Counted from the stretch's first letter, positions 9,468-63,772 are shown. The stretch is 64,000 nt of DNA from Clostridia bacterium (GCA_050950825.1 JBMNIH010000010.1:96001-160000); one strand, 5' to 3'. Notes: generated from the letters alone by a model not told the origin. Translations and numbers: made by a program.

Positions 9468-10367
9468 ATGAAGCACATTTTTATCGTAAACCCGGTTGCA
9501 GGGAAAGGAAAAACATTAAGTGTAATCCCATCCATAAAAAAATATTTTGAAGATAACCCGGGAGATACATTTGAGATATATTTAACCGAAAGAAGGGCAC
9601 ATGCTACCGAGCTTGCAAAAAAGGCCGTTTCCGAGGGAACCGGCAGGATCTATTCCGTTGGAGGAGACGGAACCTTAAACGAGGTCTTAAACGGAATGAT
9701 TCATTCGAACTTCACTTTAGGCGTCCTTCCTATGGGCTCCGGCAACGACTTTATTCGAACCTTGTGTCCCGGCATTAACCCTCATGATTTGACCGTAGAA
9801 CAAGTAGTAGAAGGCTCCGAAAAAATCGTCGACTGCGCAAAAGCCAACGATACGTACTTCATTAACGTAGCTTCCGTCGGGTTTGATGCGGAGGTAGCGG
9901 AAAACATGAAGCTGTTCAAAAAAATTCCTCTTGTAAAAGGCGCCCTATCCTATATCCTCAGCATATTTTACACCTTGGTCAACTTAAAACCCTATACCGT
10001 CCGCTACGCCATGAACGATAAAACCGGTTCTTCCGATTACTTGCTGATTGCCGTATGCAACGGAAAATATTACGGCGGAGGCTTTATGCCCGCACCGAAT
10101 GCGGATTTGAACGACGGCTTGTTCGATATATGCCACGTTAAATCCGTAAAAAGAAGAGTCGTATTTCGATGCTTTCCCAAACTGAAAGACGGGACGCATG
10201 AAACCATGCGAGATATTGTTTCCATGCATAAATCCAATTTCATTCATTTACAATCGGATCAAGAAATGTGTCTTAATCTTGACGGAGAAATCTTCAAAGC
10301 CAAAGATATCCGTTTTGAAATTCTTCCTTCATCATTGAAAATTTTAGTTCCGAAAATATCCTCTTAG
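9468..10367 (+). CDS. diacylglycerol/sphingosine kinase family lipid kinase (YegS/DgkB-like)
   Basis: IVNPVAG, GGDGTLNEVLNG, PMGSGNDF, GFDA, YYGGG, NLDGE. Confidence 0.88.
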   Translation: MKHIFIVNPVAGKGKTLSVIPSIKKYFEDNPGDTFEIYLTERRAHATELAKKAVSEGTGRIYSVGGDGTLNEVLNGMIHSNFTLGVLPMGSGNDFIRTLCPGINPHDLTVEQVVEGSEKIVDCAKANDTYFINVASVGFDAEVAENMKLFKKIPLVKGALSYILSIFYTLVNLKPYTVRYAMNDKTGSSDYLLIAVCNGKYYGGGFMPAPNADLNDGLFDICHVKSVKRRVVFRCFPKLKDGTHETMRDIVSMHKSNFIHLQSDQEMCLNLDGEIFKAKDIRFEILPSSLKILVPKISS

Positions 10368-31705: not shown

Positions 31706-31821
31706 TTCCGGCAGCGACCTATCTTCCCGAGGCGCCACGCCCCGGTATTTTCAGCACCGAGAAGCTTAACTGCCGTGTTCGGGATGGGAACGGGTGGGTC
31801 CTTCTCGTTATTGCCACCGAA
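31706..31821 (-). rRNA. rrf: 5S rRNA (ends approximate)
   Basis: CACCCGTTCCCATCCCGAACACGG..GTTAAGC..GGGAAGATAGG. Confidence 0.95.
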
Positions 31822-31898
31822 AATCTTTATTCTCTTCGCGCGCTTTTTATCGCACCCTCAAAACTGCATAATACGTCTTTTTTTCTTCAGCGACGACC

Positions 31899-34821
<2,923 letters not shown>

Positions 34822-35079
34822 TTTCCTTTGGTCCATCATTTCATATAGGTTGATTGTCCCAAGCTCGTCGCTTTTCCTGATTATTTTTTTAGCATTGTTT
34901 CAGCATTGTTTTTTTGTCGTTTTCGATAAAATTGCAGACTCAGTGAGTCACTCGTTACCGTTTTTTATTTCGGCTTCTCGTTTTAACTCTCTTTGTCTTC
35001 CTTTTTGTCGCGGTTCCATTCTTCATGGAACCTTTTGACGCATTATGCAGTTTTCAAGGTGCGATCGCTTGCGCGCTTT

Positions 35080-35155
35080 TGGTGGAGATAAAGAGATTCG
35101 AACTCTTGACCCCCTGCTTGCAAGGCAGGTGCTCTCCCAACTGAGCTATACCCCC
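35080..35155 (-). tRNA. tRNA-Ala (TGC) in the 16S-23S spacer
   Basis: GGGGGTATAGCTCAGTTGGGAGAGCACCTGCCTTGCAAGCAGGGGGTCAAGAGTTCGAATCTCTTTATCTCCACCA. Confidence 0.97.
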
Positions 35156-35242
35156 GTAAAAAGAACCTCGATGAATTTACAGTGTATTGAACCGTCAATC
35201 GACCTTATACGATTACGGCGAAATTTCTTCCGTCGTCAATCT

Positions 35243-36789
<1,547 letters not shown>

Positions 36790-52753: not shown

Positions 52754-54969
<2,216 letters not shown>

Positions 54970-55108: not shown

Positions 55109-57136
55109 CTTAACTTTAACAGTTACGGAATATAAAAAACCTTTGTAATCCTTGAGAAATGCGGCTTACGAAGGTTCTTTTGATTTCAGAAGATTGTTGT
55201 ACATTTTTCTTAGTTATCTTTTAGTGTCGGCAATAAGTTGACGTATTGCTCCGGGTTTAAGAAAACGTCGATTAAGTACAAGATTCAAGGCATTACCGAT
55301 ATCCTTTAGAAGGGGATCATAATAAGCTACTCGGTATACGTTATCCTTAACTAAACAAGCCTGATATTTTCTCAAAGACTTAATTATCTGTTCGGGAGCG
55401 TACTCCTTAATCAAACGCTTTGCCAAGAGTCTTAAAATCAGCAATGCAATGAAGCACGTAAGAAAATGTCCTTCTATCCTTTGTTTCAATGTAACATAAA
55501 CGGGACGGGTTTCAAGATCGCTTTTGGTAATTCGAAAACTATGTTCAATTTCCCAAAGCTCATGATATCTCTTGGCGACTTCGTGATCCGGCATATTGAT
55601 TTCGCTTGTAATAATTACATAATAACCGTCGTACTTTTCGTCTTCCATGATTTTTTCCGTATCCAAATAAGGAATACGTTTCGTATTGATGCATTCGCCG
55701 GTTTCGGAATCGTATTCGATATTTTTAATATAACGCAATGCGCTTTGAGCATCTTGTTTTGTATAGCGTTTGGGATTCGCTATGATTTTTTGGGCCTTTT
55801 CAATCAGTTCGGCCCGCTTATGCTTCCGGTGTCCGGCATATAGTTCGTTGTAACATACAATCTGTTTAACATCTATTGGAATCGGGCGTTTCTTGCCGTC
55901 CGCATGGGTAACCCGAAATTCCTGCGGATACGGTCTGGATTTTAAGCGGAAAACGGGTTCTCGTTTTTCCGTTTTTTCATCCCACAGATCCGCCGACTTT
56001 ACCACTCCTTTTTTCTCCACATAACCCGAAGGGTCAAATACAAAAGACTGTAGTTCCTTATTGGCTCCTCGTATTTTTTGCGAGAAGATGAAACCGTCTT
56101 TTTCAGCCGTTAAAAATGCCACGTTATCACCGCAATTTAACGCTTTATCCGCAACAACGATAATTCTTCCCAATCCGTATTCTTCCCGTACCTTCTCAAT
56201 AATTGGCATCATTGTTTGACTGTCATGGGTATTTCCTTCGAAGAGACGATATGTAATGGGAATCGCATCCGAATCCAGCAATAAACCCATTTGTACCAAA
56301 GGGTTACCGGTATTATCTTTGCAATAACCTTTCTTACGAAACTTGTCTTCTTCGTCAATCTCAAAATAGTAATTGGTAACGTCATAAAAAGTTATGTCGG
56401 TCTTGCGATTGTAATGGATTCTTACCTGCTCATGGAGATGAAGAAGAAGGTCTTCTCGAAAATCGGAAAAGTAATCCAATGCCCGATATACGTCATACCA
56501 ATCGCAATTGAAAGGTCTTGCTATTCTTTCTTTCTCTTGAAAACTCGCTATTTTTGATCCCGGTGCGAGTATGCGTGTGTAGACCAAAAGTTGCATGACA
56601 TCGTTTAGGGAATAGTCCATAGATTTAGTGCGCTGACGGTTAATCAAGAATTGATCAATTTTGAGTTCATGATAAATTCGGCTTAAAGGCAGAAATCCCA
56701 AATGGTACATGGCATCTTCGTTCTCATCCATTACTTCATTTGTACTTACATACCCTAAATAGACATCTTCTTCGGCTTCTTGCTTTTTCTTCTCCAAAGT
56801 ACGTAAACGTGCTACTTCTTTAAAGTGAGCAATCGGATCTTCAAAACGATCCAAATATTCGTCAACGTAACCTAAATTTTCGATTACATTATGCTTTACA
56901 TTCTTTGTTTTCGGATCTCTATAACCTTCGACAAAACTCAAATTCATACGACCGATTTTTTGCGGAGTAACTTTCAGGTACATGACCGTCCTCCAAAACT
57001 CTATATCATTAACAAATTGGATCATAATACGCAGCAATAGTCAGCAATTTTGATTTGACATAAAAAAAGCGATCTAACAGCGTCATATCAATGGTTTTCA
57101 TAATCTTTTTAGGACTAGTTAACTGTTAAACTCGCG
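55109..57136 (-). mobile_element. IS1634-family insertion sequence
   Basis: Imperfect terminal IRs CTTAACTTTAACAGTT / CGCGAGTTTAACAGTT; single transposase; long flanking direct repeat. Confidence 0.85.
55214..56983 (-). CDS. IS1634-family DDE transposase
   Basis: FYDVTNYYFE, VQMGLLLD..IPI.Y..FEGN, VVADK, DGYY, YHELWEIEHSFR..KS.L..RP, HFLTCFIAL; ATG 56983 after GGAGG. Confidence 0.92.
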   Translation of the reverse strand: MYLKVTPQKIGRMNLSFVEGYRDPKTKNVKHNVIENLGYVDEYLDRFEDPIAHFKEVARLRTLEKKKQEAEEDVYLGYVSTNEVMDENEDAMYHLGFLPLSRIYHELKIDQFLINRQRTKSMDYSLNDVMQLLVYTRILAPGSKIASFQEKERIARPFNCDWYDVYRALDYFSDFREDLLLHLHEQVRIHYNRKTDITFYDVTNYYFEIDEEDKFRKKGYCKDNTGNPLVQMGLLLDSDAIPITYRLFEGNTHDSQTMMPIIEKVREEYGLGRIIVVADKALNCGDNVAFLTAEKDGFIFSQKIRGANKELQSFVFDPSGYVEKKGVVKSADLWDEKTEKREPVFRLKSRPYPQEFRVTHADGKKRPIPIDVKQIVCYNELYAGHRKHKRAELIEKAQKIIANPKRYTKQDAQSALRYIKNIEYDSETGECINTKRIPYLDTEKIMEDEKYDGYYVIITSEINMPDHEVAKRYHELWEIEHSFRITKSDLETRPVYVTLKQRIEGHFLTCFIALLILRLLAKRLIKEYAPEQIIKSLRKYQACLVKDNVYRVAYYDPLLKDIGNALNLVLNRRFLKPGAIRQLIADTKR

Positions 57137-57406: not shown

Positions 57407-58177
57407 ATGTCGAAAATTATTGCTATCGCAAATCAAAAAGGTGGGGTAGGTAAAACAACTACCGCTGTAAATCTTAGTGCATGCTTGGCAATGCACAAAA
57501 AGAAAGTGTTGTTGCTGGACAATGACCCTCAAGGAAATTCCACATCGGGTTTCGGTATCAACAAAGATCAATTAAAGCATTCCGTTTACGATGTTTTAAT
57601 AAATGAAGTACCTATCGACGATTGCATTGTTGATTCCATGATTGAAACCTTAAAAGTATGTCCTTCCAATATTCAACTGGCCGGTGCAGAAGTAGAGTTG
57701 GTATCTCTCATATCCCGTGAAACAAGATTGAAAATGGCTTTGGATGAAATGAATTCCGAATTCGATTATGTCATTATCGATTGTCCGCCTTCTTTGGGGA
57801 TGCTGACGTTAAATGCACTGACGGCAGCCGATACGGTTCTTGTGCCGATCCAATGCGAATATTACGCTTTGGAAGGCTTAAGCCAATTGGTCGAAACCAT
57901 TCGAATCGTACGGAAACACTTGAATAAGAACCTGGAGGTTGAAGGTGTTGTTTTGACCATGTTCGATGCAAGAACGAACCTATCCATTCAAGTAGTGGAA
58001 GACGTGAAGAAATATTTTAAGAACAAGGTGTATCGTACAATCATACCGAGAAACGTGAAGTTAAGCGAAGCACCGAGCCACGGTTTGCCTATTATACTTT
58101 ACGAACCGAATTCAAAGGGTGCGGAAAGCTATATGGAGTTAGCGGAAGAAGTGATAGAAGCGGAGGAAGATAAATGA
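57407..58177 (+). CDS. soj: ParA-family ATPase Soj
   Basis: IANQKGGVGKTTT, DPQGN, IDCPPSLG, PIQCEYYALEG, IPRNVKLSEAPSHG. Confidence 0.96.
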   Translation: MSKIIAIANQKGGVGKTTTAVNLSACLAMHKKKVLLLDNDPQGNSTSGFGINKDQLKHSVYDVLINEVPIDDCIVDSMIETLKVCPSNIQLAGAEVELVSLISRETRLKMALDEMNSEFDYVIIDCPPSLGMLTLNALTAADTVLVPIQCEYYALEGLSQLVETIRIVRKHLNKNLEVEGVVLTMFDARTNLSIQVVEDVKKYFKNKVYRTIIPRNVKLSEAPSHGLPIILYEPNSKGAESYMELAEEVIEAEEDK

Positions 58178-59022
58178 GTAAAAAAGCTTTAGGAAAAGGA
58201 TTAAATGCATTGTTCAGCGAGGATCCTGTTGATCAAGAAAACGATATAAAGGAAGTGGATATCTATCACATTCAGCCGGATAAAAATCAACCTCGAAAGA
58301 ACTTTGATACGGAGACATTAAACGAGCTTGCCCAATCCATCAAAAGAAGCGGTGTTCTTCAGCCCATTTTAGTGCGAGAAGAAAAACCCAATACATATAC
58401 CATTATTGCAGGGGAGAGAAGATGGCGAGCAGCCAAGTTAGCCGGATTAAAAACCATTCCCGTTATCGTTAAAAATCTAACGGATATAGAAATGATCGAA
58501 GTGTCTCTGATAGAAAATTTGCAAAGGGAAGATCTGAATCCCATAGAAGAGGCGAAAGCTTATGAACGGCTGCAAAAAGAATTTAACAAAACACAAGAAG
58601 AAATAAGCGAAATTGTCGGTAAAAGCCGTACGGCCGTTACAAATTCATTGAGGCTGCTGCAGTTGGACAATGAAATTATAAATTTAATTGAAGACAGCCG
58701 CATTAGTCCGGGACATGCCAGAGCCATTTTATCTTTGGAGGATGCTTCAAAGAGAAAAGAATTGGCGAAGATCATTATAGACCAAAATTTGAACGTAAGA
58801 CAAGCGGAAGAACTGGCAAAGAAAATGAACCAAGTTACCGTGACGACCAAATCCGGATCCAAAACGAGATTGCCGGAGGTCATTGAAATTGAAAATAAAT
58901 TGCAAAGACAAATAGGAACAAAGGTAAAACTGAACTACAATAAAGGGAAGGGCAAAATCATTATTGATTTTTACAGCAACGAGGATTTGGACAGAATTTT
59001 AGAGCTGCTGCAGGTGGAATAG
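58174..59022 (+). CDS. spo0J: ParB-family partitioning protein Spo0J
   Basis: ALGKGLNAL, QPRK, GERRWRA, ENLQREDL, GKSRTAVTN, GHAR. Confidence 0.95.
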   Translation: MSKKALGKGLNALFSEDPVDQENDIKEVDIYHIQPDKNQPRKNFDTETLNELAQSIKRSGVLQPILVREEKPNTYTIIAGERRWRAAKLAGLKTIPVIVKNLTDIEMIEVSLIENLQREDLNPIEEAKAYERLQKEFNKTQEEISEIVGKSRTAVTNSLRLLQLDNEIINLIEDSRISPGHARAILSLEDASKRKELAKIIIDQNLNVRQAEELAKKMNQVTVTTKSGSKTRLPEVIEIENKLQRQIGTKVKLNYNKGKGKIIIDFYSNEDLDRILELLQVE

Positions 59023-59043
59023 ATAGCTTTAGTAAAAAATAAG

Positions 59044-59085
59044 AAGGAGATAGATTCTTTACGGATCCATCTCCTTTATTTTTAT
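59044..59085. terminator. bidirectional terminator between spo0J and the GT4 gene
   Basis: AAGGAGAT..ATCTCCTT stem with A/T-rich flanks between convergent genes. Confidence 0.7.
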
Positions 59086-59110
59086 CTTCAATTATTCATT
59101 TATTTATTGT

Positions 59111-60286
59111 TTAAGAGCCGTAAGAGTAAGTTCGGCTAAAGCGGTTAATTAGATAGCGATACCGTTCCTTCGCCATATTCGCCGAGTCTTCCCAGCTGCG
59201 GTATAAAGTCTTCGTTGCATTTTCGCCGACGGTTCTTGCCAATTCGGGGTTCTCAATGATTTTTATAATCACTTCGCACATGGATTCCGGTGTATTTTCT
59301 ACCAAAAATCCGTTCTGCATGTCCTTTACACCTAAAGATGTGGTGGACCCTTTTACCAATACGGCGGGGCATCCCATAGCTGCGGCTTCTTTAACTACGA
59401 GGGAAGACATGTCATACAAGCTGGGGAACAGCAAAGCGGTACCTCGGGCGTAAATGTTACCGATTAAATCGCGGTCCTGAATGATTCCGGCAAAGGTAAC
59501 CTTATCCGTTAATTGGTATTCCTCCGTAATTTGCTCCGCTTCCTGCCTTTTATCGCCGTCTCCGACGAATAACATTCTAAAATCGTAATTCTTTTCATGA
59601 ACAAGTTTTAAACCGTCCAAAATAAGCTTAATATTTTTTTGCCATATATGTTGTCCTACGTAAACAAAAACGGGTACGTCTTCGGGAAAACCGAACCGTT
59701 TATTTATCTCATCCAGTATTTCTTTTGTTTTCGGCTTGGGTACGATATCGCAAGCATTATTAACAACAAATACGCTTTTCTTGTAGCCGTATTCTCTTAA
59801 AATCTCAACGGCGGATTCGCTGACGGTCCATACGTCATCCGCTTGGTTAAAAAAGTACAATACTCTTTTGATTAATAAATCGGTAATAATATCGGACTTT
59901 AAATACTGTTTAAAATCATCTTTAAACTTCGAATGAAGGGTAGCTACAAAAGGAATTCCTTGATCATATGCAATCTTCCTTCCTAATTCCCCCGCAGGGA
60001 AGGGAGAATGGGAATGGATGATATCAAACTTCACTTTTTTCAATTCGTTGTAAAACTGCCGGTCAAATTGCGGTATTCCGGTTCGGTAATTCTTTTTGAA
60101 GGGTATACTGAAAGAATGGTAGGTTAACACGGGAAAAGGATATTCGTAAGAATAGCCCGGAACACCGGGAGTTATAACGTAACAAGTGTCACCGTCCTTG
60201 TGCTGCCATAACGCATAATTTTGTACTACTCGTGCTACGCCATCCGCAATAGGCGGAAAGCTGTCGGTAAACTGACCTATTATCAT
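59111..60286 (-). CDS. GT4-family glycosyltransferase (lipid glucosyltransferase-like)
   Basis: FTDSFPP..DGV, DIIHSHSPF, YVGQ..KN, FPS.YD..LVVKEAAAMG.P. Confidence 0.82.
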   Translation of the reverse strand: MIIGQFTDSFPPIADGVARVVQNYALWQHKDGDTCYVITPGVPGYSYEYPFPVLTYHSFSIPFKKNYRTGIPQFDRQFYNELKKVKFDIIHSHSPFPAGELGRKIAYDQGIPFVATLHSKFKDDFKQYLKSDIITDLLIKRVLYFFNQADDVWTVSESAVEILREYGYKKSVFVVNNACDIVPKPKTKEILDEINKRFGFPEDVPVFVYVGQHIWQKNIKLILDGLKLVHEKNYDFRMLFVGDGDKRQEAEQITEEYQLTDKVTFAGIIQDRDLIGNIYARGTALLFPSLYDMSSLVVKEAAAMGCPAVLVKGSTTSLGVKDMQNGFLVENTPESMCEVIIKIIENPELARTVGENATKTLYRSWEDSANMAKERYRYLINRFSRTYSYGS

Positions 60287-60358
60287 AAAATCATATCCTT
60301 TCTTCGTTTTAATGCTGGAATACGTTTACTGCTGCCAAAAATTAACGATGTCGTTATA

Positions 60359-61531
60359 CTATTTCCCGTACCATACTTTTTTATACACACTTAAAACGAA
60401 ATCCAATTGCTCTTTTGTATGTGTAGCCGAATAGCTGGTGCGCAGCAAACATTGTCCCTGAGGCACGGCAGGCGATACTACCGGGTTCACATACACACCT
60501 TCTTCAAGTAAGACTTTAGTCATTACAAAAGTACGTTCATCTTCGTAGGTCATGACCGGGATGATAGCCGTTGTGGAATTGCCGATAGGTATGTTCAATT
60601 CACGGAAACCGGCTCTCATATAGTCGGCGATATCTTTTAATTTCTGTACTCTTTCAGGTTCTTCCTTTAATATTTCCAAAGCTTCGTAGGCTACCGCGGC
60701 ACTGGCGGGAGTAACGGAAGCGCTGAATATGAAAGGGCGAGACTTGTGCTTAACGTATTCGACGACCTTTTTATCGGCAGCCATATGTCCGCCCAAGCAA
60801 GCCAAGGATTTGCTGAATGTTCCCATGATGATATCCACCTCGGCCTCCAGCCCGAAATATTCGGCGGTACCTCTGCCTTTTGCGCCTATCATTCCCAGTC
60901 CGTGGGCATCATCCACCATAACTCTTGCGTTATATTTTCTTGCCAAATCGATAATATCAGGTAATTTACAGATATCACCACCCATACTGAATACGCCGTC
61001 GGTTACGATGAGTTTTCCTGCGTCCAAAGGAATGTTTTTTAAAATTCGTTCCAGATCCGCCATATCGCTGTGCTTGTATTTGATAGTTTTAGCAAAACTC
61101 AGCCTGCATGCATCCACGATACTGGCATGGTTTTCGCTATCGGATAATATGTAGTCGTGGCGATCCGTCAACGCGGTAATGATTCCTAGGTTCGCTTGAA
61201 AGCCCGTACCGAATGTAACGGCGGCTTCTTTGTTTAAAAATTCGGCAATATTTTTTTCCAATTTAATATGCAAATCCAAAGTTCCGTTCAAAAAACGAGA
61301 TCCGGTACAACCCGTTCCGTATTGCTCAATGGCTTTTTTTGCAGCTTCTATTAAACGCGGATGAGAAGTTAAACCTAAGTAATTATTGGAGCCTGTCATA
61401 ATGGTTCTTTTTCCATTAATAATAACCTCGGTGTCCTGTTTGGATTCCAAAGCATGAAAATACGGATAAATCCCTTTTTCCTTTGCTTCATCGGCTGCGG
61501 TGAATTCCATGCATTTTTTAAATATATCCAT
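60359..61531 (-). CDS. spt: PLP-dependent alpha-oxoamine synthase, serine palmitoyltransferase-like
   Basis: GIYPYF..ES.QDTEV, GSNNYLGL, GTGCTGSRFLNGTL, NHAS, DGVFSM, DDAHG, GTFSKS (PLP Lys), FSAS, VNPVV.PA. Confidence 0.75.
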   Translation of the reverse strand: MDIFKKCMEFTAADEAKEKGIYPYFHALESKQDTEVIINGKRTIMTGSNNYLGLTSHPRLIEAAKKAIEQYGTGCTGSRFLNGTLDLHIKLEKNIAEFLNKEAAVTFGTGFQANLGIITALTDRHDYILSDSENHASIVDACRLSFAKTIKYKHSDMADLERILKNIPLDAGKLIVTDGVFSMGGDICKLPDIIDLARKYNARVMVDDAHGLGMIGAKGRGTAEYFGLEAEVDIIMGTFSKSLACLGGHMAADKKVVEYVKHKSRPFIFSASVTPASAAVAYEALEILKEEPERVQKLKDIADYMRAGFRELNIPIGNSTTAIIPVMTYEDERTFVMTKVLLEEGVYVNPVVSPAVPQGQCLLRTSYSATHTKEQLDFVLSVYKKVWYGK

Positions 61532-61541
61532 GTTGCACTCC

Positions 61542-62384
61542 TTAATCCTTTAAATTTTTAGCGACTTTACCGGTATATTTTTTCATTAAAACTTTTAATT
61601 TCAAACCGGTAGGTAAAATTCTGTTTAATATGTATATGAGCTTGTATTCGATACCTACGTTGGTTCGCATAGGCGGTTTTTTCTTTCGTATGATTTTCTC
61701 AACGACGAAAGCGACTTCTTCCGGAGGATATCCGTTTTGCTCGTCTTCTTCCATTACGGATACGGCATGGGTGCTTGCAGGTTCATAAAGAGCTTCAATT
61801 TCTTCTTTTCCGGCCTTTAAACGAGATTTTGTGAAGTTCGTTCGTGTGTCACCGGGCTCAACCAAGCATACATGAATATTGAAGGGGGCAAGCTCCATTC
61901 GTAAAGCTTCGGATAAAGATTCCAATGCGTATTTGGAGGCACTGTACATAGACTGAAAGGGTATGGAAATATAGCCTGCCACGGACCCGATATTGATAAT
62001 GGTACCTCTGCCTTGAGCCCTCATAAAGGGAAGTACTTTTTGGATGACTCTGACAACACCGAAAAAGTTGACTTCGAATTGTTTTTGAGCGATATCGACG
62101 GGAACCGATTCTACGGAGCCGGAGATGCCGAATCCGGCACAGTTGACAAGTACATGAATTTGCTTTTCTTTTTCGATAAGTTTTTCTACTGCAGATGCCA
62201 CCGATTGTTCATCTGTAACATCCATTTGCAGCATATGTACTCGGCTATCCGAAAAATAGTCCGCAGCTTTTCTGGAAGTTCCGTAAACAATATTCCTCGG
62301 ATCCTTTGCCAGGGTCTTCGCTATAGCTTGTCCTATTCCGGATGAAGCACCGGTAACCAATATTACGATATTTTCCGTTTCCAT
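61542..62384 (-). CDS. SDR-family oxidoreductase (3-ketosphinganine reductase-like)
   Basis: TGASSGIG, VYGTSRK, NCAG, catalytic YSASK, VCLVEPGD. Confidence 0.8.
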   Translation of the reverse strand: METENIVILVTGASSGIGQAIAKTLAKDPRNIVYGTSRKAADYFSDSRVHMLQMDVTDEQSVASAVEKLIEKEKQIHVLVNCAGFGISGSVESVPVDIAQKQFEVNFFGVVRVIQKVLPFMRAQGRGTIINIGSVAGYISIPFQSMYSASKYALESLSEALRMELAPFNIHVCLVEPGDTRTNFTKSRLKAGKEEIEALYEPASTHAVSVMEEDEQNGYPPEEVAFVVEKIIRKKKPPMRTNVGIEYKLIYILNRILPTGLKLKVLMKKYTGKVAKNLKD

Positions 62385-62430
62385 AGTCGACAGCTCTCTC
62401 TTTATTATTTATATATAATGTATTAACCGT

Positions 62431-62459
62431 ATTATACTCCCGAAAAAATGTTAATTCAA
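62431..62459 (-). promoter_or_regulatory. sigmaA promoter of the SDR-spt-GT4 operon
   Basis: TTGAAT-17 bp-TATAAT. Confidence 0.7.
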
Positions 62460-62614
62460 CTTGTTCGAGTTTTTTATTACTAGCTGATAATACTATATTA
62501 TAATATTTTCGAAGAAGATACAATGGGTTTGTTTTATTTTATGTAAATAATTAGTGTAGTTATAAATATCATTGAAAAATAACCCGGGAAATCTCATATC
62601 GGGCGGAACACTTT

Positions 62615-63772
62615 TTGCTCGGATTTGAACCGCACCAGAAGGTAACGCTAGGCGCAGCTGCGAGAGCCTTGGAAGAAAGTATAGACAGCAGTTACCGCAA
62701 AGGCGGAGAGAATGCAAGCATAAAAGCGGAAGAAGGCATTAGCAAACAAGCCGTGATGGATCTGGTACATGAGATTGAGGCGGACATGCCGATGCCGGAA
62801 CCGGAAGGAAAGAAGAAGATAAAAAGGCTTCATGTCATAGCCGATGAAGATCATGTGGCGGCACAGTTTTGGAATGAAAAGGGCGATTTGAAGCGAGATG
62901 CGAGGGGCCATAAGATTAATACCCTGATGCCTAAGCTTGTTTGTGTATTCGAGGATATTATCAATGAATCGGGGGAAGCATCCAAGAATCCCAGATATAA
63001 GCTGATCGGAAAAAAATACTTTTGCGGTATTTACGAGGGTGGCAAAGGCAACGAAAAGCTTTGGATGGAGGTTGCCGAATACATAGAAAAAACATACGAT
63101 ACGGACTATCTTGAGAGAATATACGTAGTCGGAGACGGAGCTTCGTGGATAAAAAAAGGATGCGAATATTTGGAGAACAGCAAATATGTCCTTGATAAAT
63201 ACCATATGATGAAATATATAAACAGGTCAGTGGCGCATCTTTACGATAGCGCGGACGAGGTGAAAGACTGGATTTGGGGAGCCTTGAATCGTTTGGACAA
63301 AAAGGAATTGAAGAATATCTATGAGCAGATCCTGAAGGTTACGGAAAGTGAAAACAAGAAGCAAGAAGTGGAAGATGCGTTAAGATATTTTCTAAATCAT
63401 TGGCAAGGGATAAAAACCCGAGTGGAAGAAACAAGCGGCTGGACATATTGCATAGAAGGGCAAATAAGCCATGTATTGTCGGCAAGAATGAGCAGCAGAC
63501 CAATGGGATGGAGCGAATTGGGTTGCGACCGCATGGCAAGGCTCAGAGCGTACAAAAGAAACGGCGGTAAGATTCTTGACTTGCTAAAATATCAAAAACA
63601 ACGAAAAAAGCAAAAGGAAAGGCGTGAAGCACAAGAAGAATTGATAAGAGATCTGAGAAGAAGACATTCAAAATGGACGTATGCGGAAGATACCAGACGT
63701 CACATACATGGTTTGGAAAGGAGCAGTATGAAGTGGCTAAAGAATATGACCACACTGGCTTGGGACGCATAA
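62615..63772 (+). pseudogene. ISLre2-family (UPF0236, Mutator-like) transposase, 5'-truncated
   Basis: IADEDHV, GDGASWIK, LDKYH, YFLNHW, EGQISHV..RM..RPMGWS; begins abruptly at LLGFEPHQ with no SD and an in-frame stop just upstream. Confidence 0.8.

Follow-up and report, generated by a model that had tools for sequence, protein, structure and literature searches.

The DNA considered here is a stretch of 64,000 nucleotides from a Clostridia bacterium (GCA_050950825.1 JBMNIH010000010.1:96001-160000), hereafter the window, in whose coordinates the positions of the operon are given; the host genome, which comes from anaerobic digesters, is 97% complete. Three co-oriented genes on the minus strand of this window form the candidate sphingolipid operon that is the subject of this report. 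The first of them (61542..62384) encodes a classical short-chain dehydrogenase/reductase (SDR) whose 280 aa make it a candidate for an NADPH-dependent reductase of 3-ketosphinganine (3-ketodihydrosphingosine) by family resemblance and context. It is followed by a gene (60359..61531) for a 390-aa alpha-oxoamine synthase (AOS), which is a candidate serine palmitoyltransferase (SPT) of the Bacteroidota (CFB) type, and then by a gene (59111..60286) for a retaining, GT-B-type glycosyltransferase of family 4 (GT4) and of the membrane-glycolipid-synthase kind (391 aa). The SDR and AOS genes are separated by 10 bp (61541-61532) and the AOS and GT4 genes by 72 bp (60358-60287), with no terminator between them. 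Both the open reading frames (ORFs) and the intergenic sequence agree on this point with an earlier description made from the sequence only (the sequence-only reading), and the protein motifs quoted there are all present: GIYPYFHALESKQDTEV, GSNNYLGL, GTGCTGSRFLNGTL, GTFSKS and FSAS in the AOS, and VYGTSRK, VCLVEPGD, EEDEQNG and PPMRTNVG in the SDR.

Together, the SDR and the AOS probably constitute a two-step module for the synthesis of a sphingoid long-chain base. In the first step the AOS, a pyridoxal phosphate (PLP) enzyme of the Bacteroidota type, would condense L-serine with a long-chain acyl thioester, carried either by coenzyme A (CoA) or by acyl carrier protein (ACP), to give 3-ketosphinganine; in the second, the SDR would use NADPH to reduce the 3-keto group and release sphinganine. 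The order of the genes, their family resemblance, the conserved pairing, the co-occurrence with other genes and the presence of the operon in RNA libraries were all observed directly. The host itself can reasonably be taken for a monoderm, spore-forming clostridium: LpxC was not found in its genome by a search whose control was positive in four diderms, and two Spo0A genes are present, in keeping with the monoderm clostridium proposed from the sequence only.

The serine palmitoyltransferase-like synthase and its paired candidate reductase

By Pfam, the AOS can be assigned only to the aminotransferase class I/II fold. The NCBIfam models are more discriminating, and the best of them is NF047600 (SPT, CFB type) with 565 bits, 139 above the next model, TIGR01825 (426.4 bits), which is followed by Kbl (420), a further model (399) and BioF (395). 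Among proteins of the PDB, the SPT of Sphingobacterium multivorum (SmSPT) is the top match (448.4 bits), aligned by HMMER without gaps from residue 5 to residue 386, and lower scores are reached by Thermus BioF/Kbl (296.7 bits), Sphingomonas SPT (288-290), E. coli Kbl (263) and two cysteate fatty acyltransferases (238.3 and 214 bits). Bacteroidales SPT shares 50-53% of its residues with the window AOS, Kbl 38-42% and BioF 30%. When ten metagenome homologues, which otherwise served as tree rows only, were scanned, all ten scored best on the SPT-CFB model and all fell below its cut-off.

The substrate pocket was compared at 16 positions (N52, G80, S81, F83, L84, N117, H138, S185, D210, A212, H213, T241, S243, K244, M271 and F272), of which 15 are residues of the PLP-serine site described from the SmSPT structure (PMC10196870) and one, Asn117, is described as a pocket position in a study of the cysteate enzyme (PMC13692747). 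In the alignment the AOS is identical at all 16 to the SPT of Parabacteroides distasonis and of Bacteroides finegoldii, as are four other AOS proteins from Bacillota/Mycoplasmatota. Identity to SmSPT extends to 15 of the 16 positions, M271, a backbone contact, being replaced there by Ile. Kbl of E. coli and of Bacillus velezensis, on the other hand, mismatches at four to five positions (G80, S81, L84, M271 and others) and E. coli BioF at four, while a second AOS of the host genome differs at six.

A maximum-likelihood (ML) tree of 81 rows was built by an IQ-TREE quick search under LG+C20+F+G4, with SH-aLRT (an approximate likelihood-ratio test) supports only and without proteobacterial SPT references. 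All 24 Bacillota/Mycoplasmatota AOS proteins formed one clade in this tree (SH-aLRT 99), which grouped with the Bacteroidales SPT clade (99) at a support of 89, and the Kbl references formed a separate clade (94). Both the Bacillota and the Bacteroidales clades nest in a larger one that includes the AOS of Rubrobacter and Aureispira, whose genes adjoin GNAT and NAD(P)-oxidoreductase genes; an Spt-bCerS-CerR layout is the marker described by Ding et al. (PMC11334938). The AOS resembles the Bacteroidota SPT (SmSPT, PDB 3A2B and 8GUH; NF047600) in being a stand-alone soluble AOS of about 390 aa with its PLP lysine in GTFSKS, and differs from it in belonging to a separate Bacillota/Mycoplasmatota clade and in having a host in which no LpxC was found. 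The gene context differs as well, since the SPT gene of Bacteroides/Parabacteroides adjoins a lipid-kinase gene and no SDR in the records examined, whereas the window AOS shares an operon with a reductase.

The SDR matches Pfam adh_short with 163.5 bits, and the best of 216 NCBIfam models is NF049977 (KdsR) with 279.8 bits, residues 5-260 aligning with positions 3-257 of 267. Of the 13 genes in the genome that match KdsR it scores highest, the runner-up having 160.7 bits. The translated protein carries TGASSGIG as the Gly-rich NADP(H) motif, YSASK as the YxxxK motif and a basic TSRK after strand 2; the catalytic and NADP(H) motifs of KdsR are those named by Lee et al. 2022 (PMC9278070). In its classical SDR architecture, Gly-rich motif and YxxxK it is like the KdsR of the BT_0972 type, a likeness measured through model NF049977, and it differs from that type in its lower score, discussed below, and in lying next to an SPT gene. 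By sequence alone the assignment of the SDR would be weak; it is carried by gene context.

That context was surveyed in 80 contigs with an AOS 58-70% identical to that of the window, one genome being taken per species from at least 600 matching stretches; 79 of the 80 loci are labelled Bacillota or Mycoplasmatota. In 53 of them the AOS has an SDR homologue no more than 500 bp away, on the same strand and downstream in 35, on the same strand and upstream in eight, and in divergent orientation in ten. In four further loci without an adjacent SDR the flank is truncated, and in one there is no complete AOS ORF. No neighbour other than the SDR is conserved across the 80 loci, the next cluster of neighbours occurring in nine. 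A survey of the class covered 41 genomes in 39 families, the host included, six of which have an SPT-like AOS (at least 61% identity); a close homologue of the SDR (E <= 1e-45) is found in all six and in two of the 35 without such an AOS. A conserved AOS-SDR module in Bacillota is supported by these counts, and the synteny to which the sequence-only reading had looked is borne out in the 53 loci.

Several results weigh against a sphingoid-base module, and they have to be set beside the two other functions that could be proposed for the AOS. Its 565 bits lie below the curated cut-off of NF047600 (640), which the control SPTs of P. distasonis (683.8 bits) and B. finegoldii (700.5) both exceed, and the grouping of the Bacillota/Mycoplasmatota clade with Bacteroidales SPT takes the form of an unresolved polytomy. 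With Bacillota and Kbl sequences forced together, a grouping chosen after the tree had been seen, the approximately unbiased (AU) test gave a borderline p of 0.0555 for a log-likelihood loss of 86, which is no formal rejection. The SDR likewise remains below the cut-off of NF049977 (279.8 against 400 bits), its margin over the generic model PRK06179 (249.1) is only 31 bits, and its best tblastn matches in a plasmid collection are generic oxidoreductases of Proteobacteria, about 40% identical, none of the 25 matches listed coming from Bacteroides. In 22 of the 80 loci, moreover, the flanks are complete and no SDR is adjacent. Could the AOS then be a housekeeping enzyme, either Kbl (glycine C-acetyltransferase) or BioF, placed among unrelated neighbours? 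The borderline AU result favours such a view, as does the public annotation of its homologues as '8-amino-7-oxononanoate synthase', and the Kbl and BioF scores are still sizeable. These scores are nevertheless under the cut-offs of their own models (460 and 426) and 145-170 bits below that of the SPT model. Neither a tdh nor a bio gene adjoins the AOS, tdh being the neighbour of kbl in E. coli and B. velezensis, and the pocket mismatches, the lower identities and the conserved pairing with an SDR all argue in the same direction, so that a housekeeping role is regarded as highly improbable. An SPT-like AOS, rather than a BioF or Kbl, is accordingly the supported assignment by sequence comparison. 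The proposal of the sequence-only reading that the AOS stands nearer to the Bacteroides type of SPT than to BioF or Kbl has held in the scores and the pocket, and is tempered by the sub-cut-off score; the ML tree points the same way, with a borderline AU test. The likening of the SDR to BT_0972 is upheld by the best model and the pairing, and less so by the score and the plasmid matches.

An unusual amino acid substrate is a more subtle departure from the SPT function. The AOS might use alanine or glycine, yielding 1-deoxy bases, or threonine, or cysteate, as in sulfonolipid (capnine) synthesis, with the SDR reducing the product; the outcome would be sphingolipid-like and non-canonical. In keeping with this, the AOS and the SDR are both under their equivalog cut-offs, SPTs are described as accepting alanine and glycine with low efficiency (PMC10196870), 1-deoxysphingolipids are reported in anaerobic bacteria (PMC11334938), and a cysteate acyltransferase with a 3-ketocapnine reductase is described as following a similar gene logic (PMC11211663, PMC13692747). 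Against it stands the complete agreement of the pocket with Bacteroidales SPT, including Asn117, whose local feature is reported to be absent in the cysteate enzyme (PMC13692747), as well as the 238 and 214 bits of the cysteate acyltransferases compared with 448 for SPT. Membership of the cysteate fatty acyltransferase group (CFAT/SulA/CapB) was rejected on the same grounds, namely the higher score of SPT and the retention of the SPT-type Asn117, and a non-canonical substrate is considered improbable overall.

Two other AOS genes were seen in the course of these searches. One lies on a plasmid of Priestia megaterium (CP109762.1, locus L111, 5001-6215); it has 522 bits on the SPT-CFB model and all 16 pocket residues, and it is found near genes that carry acyltransferase-family and methyltransferase annotations, with no SDR adjacent. 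The other belongs to a second cluster of AOS and SDR in the host genome (contig C1, about 64.8-68.8 kb, loci L002 and L101), in which a HAD-IIA hydrolase, a 422-aa AOS, a 354-aa two-domain glyoxalase/VOC protein and an SDR are encoded on a single strand. This 422-aa AOS is claimed by none of the models (BioF 312, Kbl 309 and SPT 295 bits), and the SDR of the cluster scores 229 bits on PRK06179 and 161 on KdsR.

Candidate acyltransferases and the possible role of the glycosyltransferase

The operon contains no bCerS gene, and the sequence-only reading had suggested that N-acylation is encoded elsewhere or that the product is non-acylated. The host genome was searched with the GNAT protein that adjoins the AOS in Rubrobacter and Aureispira, and two full-length homologues of the YghO/bCerS family were found: GNAT1 (contig C4, 683436-684551) and GNAT2 (contig C7, 130753-131811), of 372-373 aa, each with a C-terminal GNAT domain (PF00583 in both). 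YghO of E. coli K-12 matches exactly two sites in the genome, C7 130810-131787 (E 1e-34) and C4 683439-684545 (E 2e-27). YghO is listed together with Caulobacter CC_1154 as an acyl-CoA N-acyltransferase of dihydroceramide synthesis (PMC9386255), and the presence of two GNATs of this family fits the suggestion that acylation is encoded away from the operon. Sphingolipid producers in which the plasmid collection shows this family are Bacteroides, Prevotella, Phocaeicola and Sphingomonas. In Rubrobacter, Aureispira, a Streptomyces sp. and two Pseudomonas records, a homologue is found no more than 5 kb from an AOS gene.

Co-occurrence with the SPT-like AOS was examined in the class survey, where a GNAT homologue is present in all six relatives with such an AOS and in three of the 35 without (G007, G031 and the 72%-complete G029). 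Among five further genomes with an SPT-like AOS, four have a GNAT homologue, namely Peloplasma and the metagenome-assembled genomes (MAGs) of a Christensenellales, a Bacilli and a Bacillota member. Orthologues of the GNAT2 type (36-48% identity) occur in Peloplasma, the Christensenellales, the Bacilli MAG, G018 and G023, and those of the GNAT1 type in G005, G029, G031 and G044. A role in this pathway is made less certain by the homologues of G007 and G031, both of which are without an SPT-like AOS, and by a Selenomonadaceae MAG in which an SPT-like AOS is present and no GNAT homologue was found. The relatives are, besides, not independent of each other, so that the counts overstate the case; they indicate a link and do not prove it. 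In a third step of the predicted pathway, GNAT1 and/or GNAT2 would N-acylate the base to dihydroceramide, and it seems moderately probable that the GNATs do so and that the full dihydroceramide pathway is present.

The proposed arrangement can be compared with the pathway of Caulobacter and E. coli B, Spt-AcpR-AasR-CerR-bCerS (CC_1162-1165 and CC_1154/YghO). GNATs of the YghO/CC_1154 family are common to both, whereas the host AOS has no adjacent ACP or acyl-ACP synthetase gene, the reductase is an SDR of the Bacteroides type and the GNATs are unlinked to the AOS. A CerR-type gene was not identified in the host genome with the two queries used as stand-ins, the NAD(P)-oxidoreductases of Rubrobacter and Aureispira, which gave weak partial tblastn matches (E 1e-4 to 4e-6). 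Two Pfam searches of the genome were uninformative, as their controls were blank: PF13444 (OlsB-type acyltransferase) matched nothing, and nothing in Caulobacter either, from which it follows that this family is not bCerS; PF03798 (eukaryotic ceramide synthase) likewise matched nothing, its control being blank everywhere.

The two GNAT genes differ in their surroundings. GNAT1 lies 11 bp after the gene of a DUF819 membrane protein (locus L120, 5134-6426 and 6437-7555; C4 682.1-684.6 kb), in a neighbourhood with ftsW/rodA-type and murG-type genes. The DUF819-GNAT1 pair is kept in a genome of the same genus (G001) and one of the same family (G002), the GNAT1 copy of G001 carrying several stop codons. 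GNAT2 lies between the genes of two ceramidase-like proteins of about 425 aa (locus L121, 5366-6634, 6673-7794 and 8964-10247; C7 129.4-134.3 kb), which align with the neutral/alkaline ceramidase model in its N-terminal part. These neighbours were given little weight as support, since the genome holds about ten paralogues, six of them over the Pfam cut-off, and the adjacency is absent from six other GNAT2 loci. The only case of a GNAT beside an AOS seen in the class is a 2616-bp contig of G029 (C135, locus L125), on which a GNAT1-type gene (1235-2338) converges with an AOS gene that runs off the contig, leaving its C-terminal end (2456-2608).

The third gene of the operon encodes a protein with two-domain architecture, Glyco_transf_4 scoring 89.8 bits over residues 15-180 and Glycos_transf_1 95.3 bits over residues 193-359. 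Its best NCBIfam model is the alpha-monoglucosyl-diacylglycerol (DAG) synthase Mgs, matched over the full length with 103.3 bits against a cut-off of 400, and the second is the IagA/BgsA family of lipoteichoic-acid anchor enzymes, with 70 bits against a cut-off of 460. It is the sole full-length Mgs-like gene of the host genome. An alignment covering 91% of its length shows 27.8% identity to the first GT4 of a Listeria GT4-GT4-YbhN cluster. We take this Listeria cluster to be lafABC. The family is described as the only retaining one with characterised ceramide or DAG glycolipid synthases, and the alpha-GalCer synthase of B. fragilis as clustering with Acholeplasma Mgs (PMC9692976). As the family holds enzymes for both acceptors, the sequence fits a lipid acceptor and does not discriminate between them. 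The window GT4 thus shares with Acholeplasma Mgs, the Listeria GT4 and B. fragilis BF9343_3149 its family, GT-B fold, retaining mechanism and, for Mgs, a full-length model match; it differs in a score of 103 against the equivalog cut-off of 400, and its likeness to BF9343_3149 is by family description.

Is the acceptor a sphingolipid? In the fourth step of the predicted pathway, this retaining enzyme of the Mgs/LafA kind would add an alpha-linked hexose to give a glycosyl-(dihydro)ceramide in the cytoplasmic membrane of a monoderm cell. The order SDR-AOS-GT4-parB-parA is kept in G001 of the same genus, with identities of 74, 86 and 79%, and in G002 of the same family, with 63, 82 and 74%. Only in these two and in the host does the GT4 adjoin the AOS, its tie to the sphingoid module being genuine and of narrow range. 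An ordinary glycosyl-DAG synthase, making a membrane glycolipid or a lipoteichoic-acid anchor and merely co-transcribed with an AOS and an SDR that do make sphingoid bases, has to be given serious consideration, at a probability somewhat short of even. Its best models are Mgs and IagA/BgsA, its nearest relatives of characterised type are DAG glycosyltransferases, including the Listeria enzyme, and if this sole Mgs-like gene served another acceptor, any DAG glycolipid of the host would be left with no GT4 synthase. Also unfavourable to a sphingolipid acceptor is that none of the 80 other loci has a GT4 homologue 6 kb or less from the AOS, that no GT4 orthologue was found in the genomes G005 and G023, which have an SPT-like AOS, and that orthologues in G018, G029 and Butyrivibrio stand alone, with no pathway gene beside them. 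The synteny with the pair across two genera at 74-79% identity speaks for a functional tie, as do the 72-bp gap without a terminator and the single RNA contigs that cover all three genes. It may be added that known bacterial ceramide glycosyltransferases are also described in GT4 (PMC9692976), and that an SPT-like AOS is present in four of the five relatives with a GT4 orthologue, the fifth, G029, being only 72% complete. On this evidence the action of the GT4 on a sphingolipid, and with it a glycosphingolipid product, can be put forward tentatively, with chances a little below one half. Glycosylation as the step that the sequence-only reading had assigned to the GT4 is thus favoured by the operon, the synteny and a single contig, and is left in doubt by the acceptor and by a link to the pair that is confined to one family.

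A possible second link of a glycosyltransferase to the pair, unrelated to the first, was seen in three loci (L036:3359-4669, L005 and L017), where the gene of a DUF6938 protein of 436 aa adjoins a divergent SDR-AOS pair. These loci form one tight lineage of Acetivibrionales/Hungateiclostridiaceae-type MAGs, and the protein is faintly like glycosyltransferases of the GT28/MGDG-synthase type; it is mentioned as a lead only.

Viewed as a whole, the four-step route of base formation, N-acylation and glycosylation is likely on balance, each of its substrates and products being predicted from sequence. The enzymes are all of known kinds; what would be particular is their combination, in which an SPT and a KdsR of the Bacteroidota type are mixed with an acyltransferase of the YghO/bCerS type.

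Transcription and surroundings of the operon

According to the sequence-only reading, the three genes are read from a single TTGAAT-17-TATAAT promoter and closed by a terminator. A promoter-like sequence of this form is present at 62431..62459 on the minus strand, with ten of 12 consensus matches, and its use is doubtful. The region shows no excess of promoter-like sites, 10 having been counted where shuffles gave 15.6 +/- 3.4, and RNA contigs reach 62459-62475, that is, 35-50 nt upstream of the start predicted from this promoter. It is thus unlikely to give the sole start, and perhaps does not give the genuine one. The true transcription start probably lies further upstream than it implies, and is to be expected at about 62475-62490; a second TATAAT, read by eye and unscored, is found at 62502..62497. 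Of the single promoter, then, the sequence stands and the use is doubtful.

The terminator is better founded. When 59028-59095 was folded, 11 base pairs formed a stem at about 59075..59045, after which comes CUUAUUUUUU, and the whole element of stem, loop and T-run occupies 59036..59075 on the minus strand, as indicated by fold energy and RNA contig ends. The hairpin has an energy of -19.2 kcal/mol (z = -3.76), and none of 200 shuffles was as stable, which agrees with an operon closed by a terminator. It was seen by folding and was not listed in the scan that scored the promoters. The hairpin is common to the operon and to the convergent parB(-parA) genes, parB being an ORF at 58174..59022.

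Six metatranscriptome runs from biogas fermenters contain 89-97% of the sampled words of the operon, and contigs from four of them (X15, X16, X17 and X19) were placed on the locus. A single contig of 3398 nt in X15 corresponds to 59077-62474 and a single contig of 3385 nt in X16 to 59081-62459, while X17 tiles 59175-62460 and X19 tiles 59086-62475. The likely transcription unit over SDR, AOS and GT4 can accordingly be given as 59077..62474 on the minus strand. In the four runs the contigs on the operon side end at 59077-59175 and those on the parB side at 58855-59026, and no RNA contig bridges either 59027-59076, where the hairpin lies, or the spacer at 62476-62615, though the DNA is continuous. 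The contigs give a moderate hint that SDR, AOS and GT4 are one three-gene transcription unit; they are no proof of a single transcript, and RNA libraries may contain DNA.

Genes of mobile elements are found on both sides of the operon. On the one side, a DDE transposase (PF01609, 607 aa, 55214..57037) lies between parA and an ORF at 53035-54969; this ORF has its homologue directly beside parA in G002, with no transposase between the two, and the insertion is therefore specific to the host genome. On the other, a UPF0236-family ORF runs from 62615, and the element to which it belongs (region 62476-63772) ends 140 bp from the operon. The ORF begins at profile position 87, the first 86 positions being absent, and the copy looks 5'-truncated. 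Its RNA contigs begin at 62616 with loose ends, as expected of a repeated element, and since other sequence precedes this position in all four RNA runs, a repeated mobile element is indicated. The window also contains a complete rRNA operon (16S, one tRNA, 23S and 5S) on the minus strand at 31706-36789, and, at 9468-10367, the gene of a YegS/DAGK-family lipid kinase with 29% identity to the SPT-adjacent lipid kinase of Parabacteroides/Bacteroides, which may be an ordinary diacylglycerol kinase.

Possible sphingolipid synthesis in monoderm Bacillota

A literature search found no report of SPT or sphingolipid-synthesis genes in Clostridia or Bacillota. Ding et al. 2024 claim Spt-like proteins in 38 phyla; the main text of their paper never names Firmicutes, Bacillota, Clostridi- or Gram-positive, and its supplements may list them (PMC11334938). 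Production of sphingolipids in the gut is treated as a trait of Bacteroidota (PMC10865984), and in one account of a Clostridia-rich community SPT is described as detected only in E. coli and B. thetaiotaomicron (10.1101/2025.09.11.675017). Bacillota are not usually named as producers of sphingolipids; judging by sequence matches, the AOS-SDR pair is nonetheless spread widely among them. In databases the clostridial AOS is annotated as BioF or as a generic aminotransferase, and given such labels, together with AOS and SDR scores just under the curated cut-offs, gene-based surveys would miss these genes. Sphingolipids were reportedly described in Acholeplasma axanthum around 1970, which would fit the Acholeplasmataceae members of the clade.

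A wider reading, which at present must be called speculative and rather doubtful, is that sphingolipids, probably alpha-glycosyl-dihydroceramides, may be genuine membrane lipids of many monoderm Bacillota, including gut Oscillospiraceae, Lachnospiraceae and Christensenellales, and of the wall-less Acholeplasmatales/Izemoplasmatales. They would be made by a hybrid pathway in which an SPT and a KdsR of the Bacteroidota type are joined to a ceramide synthase of the YghO/bCerS type. With a cultured carrier of the AOS, the SDR and a GNAT2-type gene, Peloplasma aerotolerans M4Ah (loci L063 and L152), and an operon of just three genes, the question lends itself to direct testing. If the pair does make sphinganine, hundreds of Bacillota genomes (at least 600 matching stretches) would become candidate makers of host-active sphingolipids, and a role for these lipids in a spore-forming cell with one membrane would follow. 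If the wider reading is true, Bacteroidota would not be the sole source of sphingolipids in anaerobic gut and digester communities, and bacterial sphingolipids would not be bound to the outer membrane.

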